This document shows positions 21,606 through 24,768 of a stretch of 64,000 nucleotides of DNA, in pieces (within the stretch, counting starts at the first letter, position 1; each line of letters opens with the position of its first letter). The stretch comes from an uncultured Rivularia sp. (GTDB lineage: Bacteria; Cyanobacteriota; Cyanobacteriia; Cyanobacteriales; Nostocaceae), in assembly GCA_963665115.1 (NCBI GenBank), contig OY762007.1, positions 3,040,001 to 3,104,000 of the forward strand, written 5' to 3'. Under the pieces are notes generated by a model, which saw only the letters and a list, made by a program, of their open reading frames with translations, was not told the DNA's origin and did no database searches. Made by a program: the position numbers and the translations under genes.

Positions 21606-22136
21606 GCCTAATTTATTGCTAATTGATTTATTTTAGGAAATATTATCATCTTGGCAAAAATTGGGACATTAATTTGTATTGCTTGTAGATTTGCTGGTTT
21701 TTTTTGGCAAAAACTGACTTTGTTTATAGTCGTAAATTCGCCAATATTTAGCTAAAAAACCTTTATCAGCTTATATTTACGAAGTTTAAAATAGGTTTTG
21801 CAAAAAAATTAAGAAGATTACATTTAGGCAAAGCTGGGAAATGAAGTAATTAGCGATACAATTACATACTGAAAATCAGTAGTAATCCAACATCCGAGTT
21901 TTGATTACAACTTTAAATAAATATGACGGTGAAAACATCTTACTGGTTAAAAAAAGCGGGCTAGTACTCCGCCACATTAATTTTAAGAGGTTCGTAGTTG
22001 GGCTTCAGCCCCTCATATTAGAGAATTCGGAGGGGCTGAAGCCCAACTACAAGCCTTTATTCCCCCTCTTTCCCTCACCCGGCATTTTTTTATGAGAACA
22101 CTAAAAGCCAACACTACAAATTCCTGAGTCAACATC

Positions 22137-22165
22137 TTGACATCTCATAATACACATACTACATT
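22137..22165 (+). promoter_or_regulatory. Putative sigma70-type promoter for the tRNA-like array / TROVE operon
   Basis: TTGACA (22137-22142), 17 nt, TACATT (22160-22165); ~140 nt upstream of the first unit. Confidence 0.55.
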
Positions 22166-22306
22166 AATAATACAGAGCGAAAAACACAGCACAAATTAGT
22201 AAAACTGCCTTCTATATTTGACTGCTGCGATATATTTTTCAATCTCTTTTAAACAAGCATTATTTACGCAAGGAAGTAATGTATTAAAAAATTAGAATTT
22301 CGTATG

Positions 22307-22447
22307 TAACGGGTGGCGGAAATAGTAGACGCGCTAATTTAAACCTTGATTTAACAACTTGCCCAACTTCCACGTTAGGACGAAGAATCTAGGGTTATCG
22401 GGATTTAGTAACTAATAGTTGTGCAGGTGCAAATCCTGTCCCGTTAC
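22307..22447 (+). ncRNA. tRNA-like element 1 (Leu-like scaffold) with the conserved module in the anticodon arm; putative Y-like RNA
   Basis: Acceptor TAACGGG/CCCGTTA; Leu-type D region TGGCGGAAATAGTAGACGCG; variable arm AACT-AAT-AGTT; T arm GCAGG-TGCAAAT-CCTGT; module CAACTTGCC..GGACGAAG..AGGGTTATCG. Confidence 0.85.
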
Positions 22448-22491
22448 ACAAAACATTCAGAATTTAGATATTCAAAATCTAAAACATTCAA

Positions 22492-22621
22492 GCAGGGATA
22501 GTTTAGCAGCCTAGAACGCCGTAAATATCCTTATTCACAACTTGCCCCATTGGGGACGCAGAATTTAGGGTTATCGCCTTCCACGCCGGAGACGCGGGTG
22601 CAAATCCCGTTCCCTGTTCCA
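22492..22621 (+). ncRNA. tRNA-like element 2 (Gly-like scaffold, encoded CCA) with the conserved module; putative Y-like RNA
   Basis: Acceptor GCAGGGA/TCCCTGT then T then CCA; D arm GTTT/GAAC; T arm GCGGG-TGCAAAT-CCCGT; residual loop CTTCCAC. Confidence 0.85.
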
Positions 22622-22657
22622 ATTAATTTAGGTTTTGAATTTTGAATTGTTTTTTAA

Positions 22658-22801
22658 GAAGGGGTTGCCAAGTGATAAGGCAGCGGAAGGGTAAATTAAT
22701 TATCCTTATTCCTTGATTAACAACTTGCCCGTTTAAGGGACGAATATCAAGGGTTATCGTGATTTCGCCATTCGCAGGTTTGAATCCTGCCCCCTTCACC
22801 A
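22658..22801 (+). ncRNA. tRNA-like element 3 (His/Gln-like scaffold, encoded CCA) with the conserved module; putative Y-like RNA
   Basis: Acceptor GAAGGGG/CCCCTTC then A then CCA; D region GCCAAGTGATAAGGC; anticodon stem GCGGA/TTCGC; T arm GCAGG-TTTGAAT-CCTGC. Confidence 0.85.
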
Positions 22802-22828
22802 ACAAATCTAAAATCCAGAATATTCATG

Positions 22829-22957
22829 TGGCGAGTAGCTCAGTTGGATAGAGCAACAGAAGAATATCCTTTTTCACAAACTTGCCTTTCAGGGGACGAA
22901 GAATTAGGTTTATCGATTTTAATCTGAATGCCGCAAGTTCGAGTCTTGCCTCGCCAC
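22829..22957 (+). ncRNA. tRNA-like element 4 (Lys-like scaffold) with the conserved module; putative Y-like RNA
   Basis: Acceptor TGGCGAG/CTCGCCA; D arm GCTC-AGTTGGATA-GAGC; CAGA/TCTG stem with residual TTTTAA; T arm GCAAG-TTCGAGT-CTTGC. Confidence 0.85.
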
Positions 22958-22993
22958 CTTTCATTTTGTCCGCAAGGGCTGGGAGTTAAAATA

Positions 22994-24604
22994 ATGAACT
23001 ATAAATTTTTTACTAAAAATAATCAAAATAAAAATACACCGCAAAATCAACCTATCCCTGGCAGAGAAGCTGAAATGATTCAGGGAAGAAGCGGCGGTTA
23101 TATGTTTGATGCTGGTATATGGCAAATGCTGCGACGCTGTTTGCTAATTGGTACCGCTAAAAGCACTTATTATGCAGGAAAGCGCGAATTAACAGAAGAT
23201 TTTGTTTCAACCGTTCAAAAAGCTGTTGATGAAAACCCAAATCGAGTTGCTGAAGAAATTCTCTATGCTAGCGATGGACGAGCTATCAATAACAGCGCTC
23301 CTATTTTTGCTTTAGTGTTGCTATCGATGGGTAAAACACCGGAAGCTAAAAAAGCTTTTACAGAAATCTTTCCGCAAGTAGTTCGTACTGGCAGTCATTT
23401 TTATGAATGGTTGAGTTATACCAAATCGCTGCGGGGTTTCGGTAAAGTTGTCCGCGAAGCTGGTAAAACCTGGTTATCGCGTGCAGATGCTAAAGCTTTA
23501 GCTTATCAATTGTTGAAATATCAGCAACGTCATGACTTCACCAACCGCGATGCTTTACGATTGTTTCACGTCAAACCACCTTCCCAAGATCATGAATTAT
23601 TGTTTAATTGGGTAGTCAAAGGTTGGGAAGAATTACCAACGAATATTCCCAGCGAAGCATTAGCGCAAATTTGGTGGTACGAATGGTTGAAGCGCAATCC
23701 AGATCGAACCCATGAAGCTATTACTCAAGGGCGTTTGACTCATGAAATGTCTGCTCCGGTGGGCAAAATGGATAAGCAAGCTTGGCAATTGTTATTTAAC
23801 GAAATGCCGATTGGCGCAATGTTGCGTAACTTGGGTTCGCTGACTGAATTGGATGTATTGCGAACTGATGAAACTGCAAACCTCGATCGCGTTGAAGCAG
23901 TTTTAAATAGTAAAGAGCGTTTACGAAAAGGACGCATTCATCCGATTGATGTTTTGAAAGCCCTTAAAACCTATCAATCGGGAGGAAAATTAGGACGCAG
24001 TAAAAAGACTTGGAATCCAGTTAGCCGCATAGTAGACATTTTAGAAAAAGCGTTAGAACTGTCTTTTGATGTAGTTGAGCCTACGGGTAAAGTTTTCATG
24101 CACGCGGTTGACATTTCCGGTTCGATGTCTAGCAGTACCGTCAGTTCGGTTGGACTTACCTGCTGTGAAATTGCTACTACAATGGCATTAGTTACCGCTA
24201 AAGCTGAGAAAAACTATATGATTCGCGGTTTTGCTACCGACTTTCGCAACTTGGGCATAACTGCAAAAGATAGTTTTAGTTCGGCGATCGCCAAAGCTAG
24301 AAATCAAAACTTCGGCGGAACTGATGCTTCAGTTGCTTATGATTGGATGATTAAAAACAACTTCAAAGCTGATGTAATTTGTTTTTGGACTGACTCAGAA
24401 AGTTGGGCTGGTAGAAGTCATCCATCGCAGGCATTAGCACGATATCGTAAGAGAGTCAATCCCAATGCGAAAGCCGTTTATATCACTCTTGCACCTTATC
24501 AGATTACCTTAGTAGACCCCAAAGACCCGTTATCGTGGGACATCGGCGGATTCGATCCAGGTGCGCCGCGTTTGATTCAAATGCTTGCTGAGGGTGGATT
24601 ATAA
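22994..24604 (+). CDS. rsr: Ro60/Rsr-family TROVE + vWA RNA-binding protein
   Basis: TROVE motifs (SGGYMF, LRRCLLIGT..STYY, LLKYQQR, MPIGAMLRNLG, RIHPIDVL) and vWA MIDAS (DISGSM, GGTD, TDSE). ATG 22994 follows GGGAG; the ORF-track start at 22928 lies inside tRNA-like element 4. Confidence 0.93.
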   Translation: MNYKFFTKNNQNKNTPQNQPIPGREAEMIQGRSGGYMFDAGIWQMLRRCLLIGTAKSTYYAGKRELTEDFVSTVQKAVDENPNRVAEEILYASDGRAINNSAPIFALVLLSMGKTPEAKKAFTEIFPQVVRTGSHFYEWLSYTKSLRGFGKVVREAGKTWLSRADAKALAYQLLKYQQRHDFTNRDALRLFHVKPPSQDHELLFNWVVKGWEELPTNIPSEALAQIWWYEWLKRNPDRTHEAITQGRLTHEMSAPVGKMDKQAWQLLFNEMPIGAMLRNLGSLTELDVLRTDETANLDRVEAVLNSKERLRKGRIHPIDVLKALKTYQSGGKLGRSKKTWNPVSRIVDILEKALELSFDVVEPTGKVFMHAVDISGSMSSSTVSSVGLTCCEIATTMALVTAKAEKNYMIRGFATDFRNLGITAKDSFSSAIAKARNQNFGGTDASVAYDWMIKNNFKADVICFWTDSESWAGRSHPSQALARYRKRVNPNAKAVYITLAPYQITLVDPKDPLSWDIGGFDPGAPRLIQMLAEGGL

Positions 24605-24656: not shown

Positions 24657-24768
24657 GGCGGGATTTCCTGGTTCGCAACTTGCCCATATCGGGACGATGA
24701 ATTTAGGATTATCGGCATCAAATCTCCACCATTTAGGGGATCAACGGGTTCGATCCCCGTACCCGCCT
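24657..24768 (+). ncRNA. tRNA-like element 5 with the same module placed where the D arm would be; putative Y-like RNA
   Basis: Acceptor GGCGGG/CCCGCC; module CAACTTGCCC-ATATC-GGGACG..AGGATTATCG directly after the 5' strand; hairpin ATCTCC/GGGGAT; T arm ACGGG-TTCGATC-CCCGT; followed by a T-run. Confidence 0.8.

Follow-up and report, generated by a model that had tools for sequence, protein, structure and literature searches.

Predicted Y RNAs in tRNA order beside the Ro60 gene of an uncultured Rivularia

The window, a 64,000-nucleotide stretch of DNA from an uncultured Rivularia, contains an array of tRNA-like units next to the gene for the Ro60 protein Rsr. Judged from their sequence, these units are very probably Y RNAs of Rsr in which the arms keep the order of a tRNA, that is, an un-permuted form of the bacterial Y RNA YrlA. 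Each of four units upstream of rsr combines an acceptor stem that pairs within the unit (7/7) with D and T arms and a single copy of a common module (repeat family D1, four copies in the window). The initial annotation, which had noticed these four units, left the module without an identity; it is predicted here to be a Ro60-type binding helix, and it lies beside a Ro60 gene.

The rsr gene (22994–24604, + strand) encodes 536 amino acids with TROVE and vWA_Ro60 domains (Pfam), is similar over its full length to Xenopus Ro60 (1yvp, E = 3e-70) and Deinococcus Rsr (2nvo, E = 1e-69), and has its nearest relatives in Rivularia (97–98%). It was the sole TROVE locus found in the genome. The units lie on the same strand, 37–690 nt upstream, with A/T-rich spacers of 24–40 nt between them, and rsr begins 37 nt past the last. 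Unit 1 (22306–22450, +) has an 8-bp acceptor of a type that recurs throughout the family, a Leu-type D arm and anticodon stem, and a long variable arm; its module (22344–22399) stands in place of the anticodon loop, and it scores 54.9 bits with our covariance model. Unit 2 (22492–22621, +) has a 7-bp acceptor, U73 and an encoded CCA. Its module (22522–22575) lies between tRNA positions 29 and 30 and leaves the loop CT TCC AC intact (Gly anticodon, 22580–22582). Unit 3 (22658–22801, +) also has a 7-bp acceptor and an encoded CCA, with A73; its D arm, stem and variable loop are of Gln type, and the module, which runs to 22758, comes after an additional hairpin (22687–22707) and before a GTG triplet (22759–22761). 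The unit scores 49.7 bits. Unit 4 (22828–22957, +) has the family 8-bp acceptor without an encoded CCA, a module that runs to 22914 and a Lys-type UUUUAA loop (22917–22922). Units 2 and 4 score 100.4 and 108.9 bits, both being part of the model's training set.

A fifth unit (24657–24767, +), overlooked by the initial annotation, lies just past rsr. It is reduced to an acceptor-like stem, module, hairpin and T arm, without a D arm (the module part scores 34 bits), and an equal layout was found 3' of rsr in 57 of 80 loci. The strict module pattern occurs five times at the rsr locus, with 19 further genome-wide matches to that loose expression, and the strong host-genome matches to the covariance model, among the matches listed, are all at this locus. 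Of four sequencing runs compared, one yielded a contig from a related strain that covers the whole locus, and the array is therefore not an assembly artefact. This contig differs by 42 changed letters and 11 gaps, many of them in the module of unit 1; the other three runs yielded short pieces only. No RNA run holding the locus was listed among the public runs, which has no bearing on expression. Scanning eight neighbouring open reading frames recognised no nuclease, ligase or PNPase gene.

The module reads, in order, outer stem, ACUUGCC, loop, GGACGAAG, outer stem and UUAUC. It thus carries the Y-RNA motifs GNCGAA and YUAY, joined by a loop and set within the anticodon arm. YrlA was defined by Chen et al. 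(2014; PMC4201824) by the motif GNCGAAN0-1G together with YUAY. Units 1 and 4 of the window have the former as GACGAAG, unit 3 as GACGAA and unit 2 as GACGCAG, and TTATC (YUAY) is present in all five units. The motif lies within a bulged helix (helix 5) of which both strands are kept, with 96% pairing in 50 units, and ACUUG in the module matches the end of the Rfam YrlA consensus. The module therefore corresponds to the two ends of YrlA joined by a loop, and the unit as a whole to a YrlA circularly permuted back to the order of a tRNA. The insert is about 55 nt long and sits between positions 29 and 30 with anticodon stem and loop intact in unit 2 and most relatives; 137 of 151 standard-length units pair at 30:40 and 31:39.

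Likeness to YrlA (RF02553; PMC4201824; Wang et al. 2018, 10.1101/312249) extends to the surroundings: as described there, YrlA genes lie on the same strand within 4 kb of Ro60, several per locus, and share GNCGAA, YUAY, the ACUUG strand and tRNA-like D and T arms. The present units fit this in strand and distance, and their D and T stems covary. Where they differ is in order. YrlA runs from T arm through a closed acceptor loop to D arm, its Ro-binding stem is made from the RNA ends, and these accounts describe it without an anticodon loop or a free CCA end. Within each covarying unit, by contrast, the D arm comes before the T arm and the acceptor has free ends; a loop closes the Ro helix, and the anticodon loop is often intact. 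The units resemble Yrn1 and Yrn2 of Deinococcus and the vertebrate Y RNAs in keeping both strands of the bulged helix, beside a Ro60 gene similar to that of Deinococcus Rsr; as described, those RNAs form the helix from their 5' and 3' ends and, unlike the units, have no complete cloverleaf.

Could the mature RNAs nevertheless be ordinary YrlA, each starting at the GNCGAA of one unit, crossing the spacer and ending with the D arm and ACUUG of the unit after it? This is the register in which Chen et al. modelled cyanobacterial YrlAs, starting them at the GNCGAA motif with an oddly long 'acceptor stem', and their supplement lists examples from Rivularia (including PCC 7116), Nostoc, Calothrix and Stanieria (PMC4201824). 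The best Rfam match to YrlA, at the junction of units 3 and 4 (22756–22883; 23.7 bits, E = 0.024, against a gathering score of 69), is in the same register. However, where the acceptors of neighbouring units differ, halves from different units pair less well than those of one unit in 108 of 144 cases, equally well in 34 and better in 2, a comparison in which the parser favours the in-unit side. The spacers across loci vary from 19 to 297 nt and are not conserved; in 74 of 77 loci no partner half precedes the first unit, and in 68 of 68 no D arm follows the last. Single units also exist (L083, L096), and five loci have one parsed unit. We therefore consider the permuted register very improbable. 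The tRNA-ordered form further suggests an anticodon arm in what is labelled 'V arm' in several aligned YrlAs (the Streptosporangium, Gordonia and Mycobacterium rows of the published alignment).

The tRNA-ordered reading draws on a wider family. We collected loci from the best 80 of 345 Rsr hits and the window, and found such units in 77 of the 81. A parser gave 269 candidates, of which 228 upstream units with at least 6 acceptor pairs and a length of at most 175 nt were kept, a few of them mis-parsed. As the loci are the best 80 of 345 hits and mostly from Nostoc, counts of units are not independent, and the count of in-unit acceptor pairing is circular because the parser demanded it. Covariation was examined in 50 distinct standard-length units (48 that a 93% filter left of 134, plus units 2 and 4 of the window). 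Of the cells of the proposed structure 96.5% are paired, and both sides change at 23 of 36 pairs and at 7 of 8 in the acceptor; none of 500 shuffles reached the observed level, and slid controls paired at 41–52%. As unconstrained folding misses the cloverleafs (z = -0.25, 0.20, -2.05 and -0.47), the structure rests on covariation.

The covariance model (R1) also matches ordinary tRNAs, with up to 56 bits over about 79 nt, so only matches of at least 59 bits and more than 110 nt were counted; one 152-nt match of 50.7 bits in genome G052 and 957 weaker matches were left out. On this count full-length units occur in 16 of 151 genomes of the phylum, and all 16 have a full-length Rsr at most 5.5 kb away. 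Units were found in all 14 genomes with a close Rsr (at least 69%) and in 2 of 6 with a distant one. Among viral contigs, a loose module pattern gave 120 stretches, with no full units (and three short matches of tRNA length) among the 80 examined; the strict pattern gave one true unit, at L083 on a contig of high G+C, about 720 nt from a Ro60 gene.

Several loci depart from the common layout. At L094 (genome G038) two units lie 5.5 kb from rsr rather than adjoining it. At L097 and L099 (genomes G070 and G082) tRNA-ordered units stand within long arrays of tRNA genes near a distant Rsr (34–37% identity), and L097 has a YrlA-ordered RNA alongside its tRNA-ordered unit, so that both orders coexist. 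By a rough rule, 30 of the 228 units have a 'type B' topology, in which the motif hairpin directly follows the D arm, the partner of the outer stem lies downstream, the anticodon loop is absent and the T loop is often TGAAAAT. Type B units were seen first in the array at L013, L014, L016, L019–L027 and others. Short insertions ending CGCT..GC(T/G)AAC interrupt T loops in unit 3 of L001, in the first unit of L004 and at L089, as they do in several genes of the host tRNA array (G000:C1 2710600–2711450); they are reminiscent of the small dispersed repeats of cyanobacteria.

As canonical tRNA genes the units were rejected: they carry the 55-nt insert, units 1 and 4 have 8-bp acceptors, ARAGORN in default mode called no tRNA in the window (with introns allowed, unit 4 alone), and Rfam reported nothing there at gathering level. 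A related possibility is that the module is an intron, spliced out to leave working tRNAs. Without its module, unit 2 would be a plausible tRNA-Gly(UCC) with U73 and CCA, and the genome encodes two RtcB ligases. Such elements were interpreted as group I introns by Mohanta et al. (2017; PMC5733544), whose motifs (CTTG.CT, AAG.C, GAAGAAT and GG) and lengths (38–49 nt) fit the module; the sections of that paper relevant here make no link to Ro60. The insert falls short of the length of a group I intron, and the Rfam scan of the window matched no intron family. Group I introns in tRNA genes have a catalytic core of some hundreds of nucleotides and are inserted in the anticodon loop. The module, in contrast, sits in a stem, at 29/30; its removal leaves units 1 and 3 without a normal loop; and in the host genome it is confined to the Rsr locus, among the matches listed. 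Splicing of any kind thus seems a very poor explanation of the module.

What is the origin of the tRNA scaffolds? The initial annotation saw one module grafted onto four different tRNA isotypes, and the observation holds. The scaffolds are not copies of one another: without the module they align pairwise with scores of 0.44–0.55, like unrelated isotypes (median 0.51 over 1127 host pairs). Unit 1 is of Leu type, with a long variable arm and a core like Leu(CAG/UAG) (z = 3.3 among 49 host tRNAs). Scores for whole scaffolds cannot assign isotypes, since the best (0.56–0.69) fall within the range of best different-isotype scores of host tRNAs (0.55–0.78), and isotypes were compared over core positions 8–48. 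On this comparison the remaining labels need adjustment. Unit 2, labelled Gly, has a Gly anticodon loop but a core that is weakly Glu/Asp-like (z = 1.7). Unit 3, labelled His/Gln, has a His-type GTG triplet and a Gln(UUG)-like core (z = 3.3), and its core is better called Gln. Unit 4, labelled Lys, has the Lys-type loop but an Arg-type D loop and no clear isotype (z = 1.4). Thus, the cores are tRNA-derived in at least two lineages (Leu in unit 1, Gln in unit 3), on the evidence of these comparisons. In four orthologues of unit 1 from Nostocales, positions 8–31 are the same as those of the host tRNA-Leu(CAG) at 25 of 25 nt, and across the family the D-arm class follows the variable-loop class on the other side of the module, as in real tRNAs. 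The description of the units as diversified tRNA mimics is borne out, and parts of them derive from real isotypes.

Most of the acceptors, however, are of one family type. The form GTRRYRRR fits 191 of the 228 units, among them units 1 and 4 (which agree with the family consensus at 12 of 16 positions), and none of 49 host tRNAs. Among units with this acceptor, 184 pair at -1:73, and ACCA follows in 64 of 111 that are non-terminal, giving an 8-bp stem, a discriminator and CCA. An acceptor of 8 bp recalls bacterial tRNA-Sec, which avoids EF-Tu. By inspection, units 2 and 3 seem to have acceptors of the family type that lack one pair.

These data bear on the strictest form of the earlier proposal, that the module was inserted independently into four complete captured tRNA genes (Leu, Gly, His/Gln and Lys). 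The agreement in class of the cores on either side of the module, the unit 1 orthologues, the 7-bp acceptors with encoded CCA in units 2 and 3, and the single units inside long tRNA arrays in two genomes of the non-oxygenic clade (L097 and L099) all fit such captures. However, the shared acceptor would require later homogenisation, the D arm and the anticodon are of different types in units 2, 3 and 4 and at L003, L009 and L011 (Pro-type D arms with Lys- or Phe-type loops), and a single scaffold bears Asn, Lys, Gly, Ile, Tyr, Asp or His loops among relatives. Independent capture of four complete genes is thus improbable. Some of the cores are those of real isotypes, as had been proposed, but whole genes were not simply captured. 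The simplest reading is that one Y-RNA gene was duplicated and that D-arm, stem and loop segments of tRNA genes entered its copies.

The D and T loops were previously described as eroded. Their sequences had been given correctly (T loops TGCAAAT, TGCAAAT and TTTGAAT in units 1–3, with the D-loop GG missing from all three; the T loop of unit 4 is TTCGAGT), but the changes are coupled in pairs, which is not what erosion describes. In 60 distinct combinations, GG occurs with U55 in 36 and never with G55, while non-GG loops occur with G55 in 20 and with U55 in 4. Units 1 and 2 have an A18/G55 elbow. The GA of unit 3 accompanies U56 (an A19/U56 elbow), as in the tRNA-Asp of the host array, and unit 4 is canonical. 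The switch in unit 1 is derived, since its Nostoc orthologue has the canonical pair. This coupling points to an elbow that is maintained rather than decaying, the tertiary pairing itself being predicted.

The anticodon loops are varied but obey the rules of tRNA. We found 36 distinct loops with 22 anticodons for 13 amino acids; U33 is present in 34 and a purine at 37 in 35, and G37 accompanies G36 in 8 of 10 loops compared to 1 of 26 others. Ten loops equal a host loop, against 2.8 expected from column shuffles (P = 0.00025). Such loops could stem from copying of tRNA genes, with or without selection. A canonical anticodon loop is lacking in unit 1, unit 3, the fifth unit and the 30 units of type B, so not every copy can serve as a bait through its anticodon.

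A sigma70-type promoter (TTGACA-17-TACATT, 22137–22165, +) precedes the array, found by a scan whose overall count was at chance level. Its -10 hexamer is overlapped by the 8-bp box ATACTACA (22156–22163, +), which is the reverse of TGTAGTAT, the site reported for TrcR (PMC10272220). The exact 8-mer precedes the first unit by at most 300 nt in 60 of 76 loci, compared to an occurrence in 0.8% of 5000 random genome windows, and the promoter fits the direct-repeat signature given in PMC8421152 with one mismatch. In the host genome the tRNA array has the box twice, one rtcB promoter matches it at 7 of 8 positions and the other rtcB promoter has none. The same 8-nt box over the -10 element is described for the trn operon (L-array) of Anabaena and the TrcR regulon (PMC8421152, PMC10272220), where the tRNAs, unlike our units, are uninterrupted; neither 'TROVE' nor 'Ro60' appears in the main text of the two papers. 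A second candidate control element lies between unit 4 and rsr. This mini hairpin (22966–22985, +) is a small copy of the inner hairpin of the module and runs into the Shine-Dalgarno sequence GGAG of rsr. It overlaps the Shine-Dalgarno in 70 of 80 leaders, which suggests a site for autoregulation of rsr by Rsr. At L048 the array is absent from the 900 nt before rsr and the mini hairpin is retained.

We propose a scheme that would join these elements. A putative TrcR would repress the single promoter and release it under translational stress, together with the trn array and rtcB. The polycistronic RNA would be cut at acceptor ends by tRNA-processing nucleases, and the insert and 8-bp acceptor would keep the products out of translation. 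Rsr would bind the bulged helix, so that the tRNA body projects from its ring with elbow, acceptor end and anticodon loop exposed, and the varied loops could then engage anticodon nucleases or other enzymes that read tRNA loops. Such engagement might spare real tRNAs, or bring damaged RNA to repair or decay linked to Rsr. Free Rsr, in turn, would limit its own synthesis through the mini-site on the Shine-Dalgarno. Taken as a whole, this explanation, in which tRNA-shaped, Rsr-bound Y RNAs serve as decoys or baits for tRNA-attacking enzymes under translational stress, seems to us slightly favoured by the sequence data. Its functional core, a decoy or bait role towards enzymes of tRNA loops, is the leading candidate function, and we put its chances at about even.

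The decoy role is favoured because the varied loops obey tRNA rules, because the array appears to share its control with rtcB and the trn array, and because a competitive-inhibitor role has been considered for YrlA (raised in PMC7790460). Cleavage and a role as sponge have similarly been raised for RNAs of the trn array (PMC8421152). It counts against a decoy that Salmonella YrlA was not cleaved by a damage-induced anticodon nuclease, as reported in PMC7790460, and that the eight neighbouring reading frames scanned yielded no nuclease, ligase or PNPase gene. A more elaborate version would see the array as a fast-diversifying, stress-induced library of whole-tRNA decoys on Ro60, in which every copy presents its own anticodon loop or tRNA body; recombination with tRNA genes would renew the set, and selection would fit it to the specificities of anticodon nucleases. 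This version would also make the tRNA-ordered RNAs ancestral to permuted YrlA through a register shift in a tandem array. We regard it as possible but doubtful.

The main competing account of function is that the tRNA-ordered Y RNAs attach Rsr to a partner that binds the elbow, PNPase or another, in the manner of the Deinococcus RYPER complex, with the tRNA shape serving stability and the variety of isotypes and anticodons arising neutrally from recombination with tRNA genes. Tethering is the only role shown for bacterial Y RNAs in the accounts given in PMC4201824 and PMC12135203. It would fit an elbow kept by paired changes, the lack of an anticodon loop in some copies, and the near-maximal entropy at positions 34–36 (1.94–1.98 bits), which drift would also give. 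It sits less well with U33, purine 37 and the G36–G37 link, all kept across 36 distinct loops, and with arrays of up to about six different copies beside one rsr gene, more than a generic tether would need. On balance we judge the tether rather unlikely.

Another tRNA-like RNA occasionally found in such company is b7a-tRNA, reportedly described by Burroughs and Aravind in 2016. It occurs at times beside Rsr in RNA-repair neighbourhoods, but it resembles an authentic tRNA beside a Band-7 protein, and its description in 10.1101/312249 includes no Ro-binding insert.

Loci of this kind are already in print, as putative YrlA in another register (Chen et al. 2014) and as group I introns (Mohanta et al. 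2017), and the tRNA-ordered reading corrects both. The literature searched contained no description of tRNA-ordered Y RNAs, of their variety of anticodons or of control of rsr by TrcR, although the form may already be covered in three Wolin-laboratory reviews (Sim and Wolin 2018; Boccitto and Wolin 2019; Sim et al. 2020). The role of the tRNA-like domain of bacterial Y RNAs is posed as an open question in PMC4201824 and 10.1101/312249. Free acceptor ends, varied intact loops, a likely known inducer (TrcR, translational stress) and culturable Nostocales make the proposals above directly testable. The units also offer a route to YrlA, in which the register of tandemly arrayed tRNAs bearing the module would have shifted; the alternative set out in 10.1101/312249 is a dimeric-tRNA model in which the Ro site arose afterwards.

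Three further features were noted in the window and the host genome. A strong inverted repeat at 21983–22060 (27-nt arms, 93% complementary) belongs to a dispersed repeat outside the array, with 35 BLAST pieces in the genome. Between 26390 and 29113, 1.8 kb downstream of rsr, a XisI gene lies opposite a NACHT-domain gene with an N-terminal helix-turn-helix-like stretch. Elsewhere in the host genome (G000:C1 203125–203273) there are two orphan tRNA-like genes, one of which ARAGORN labels Pyl(CTA).
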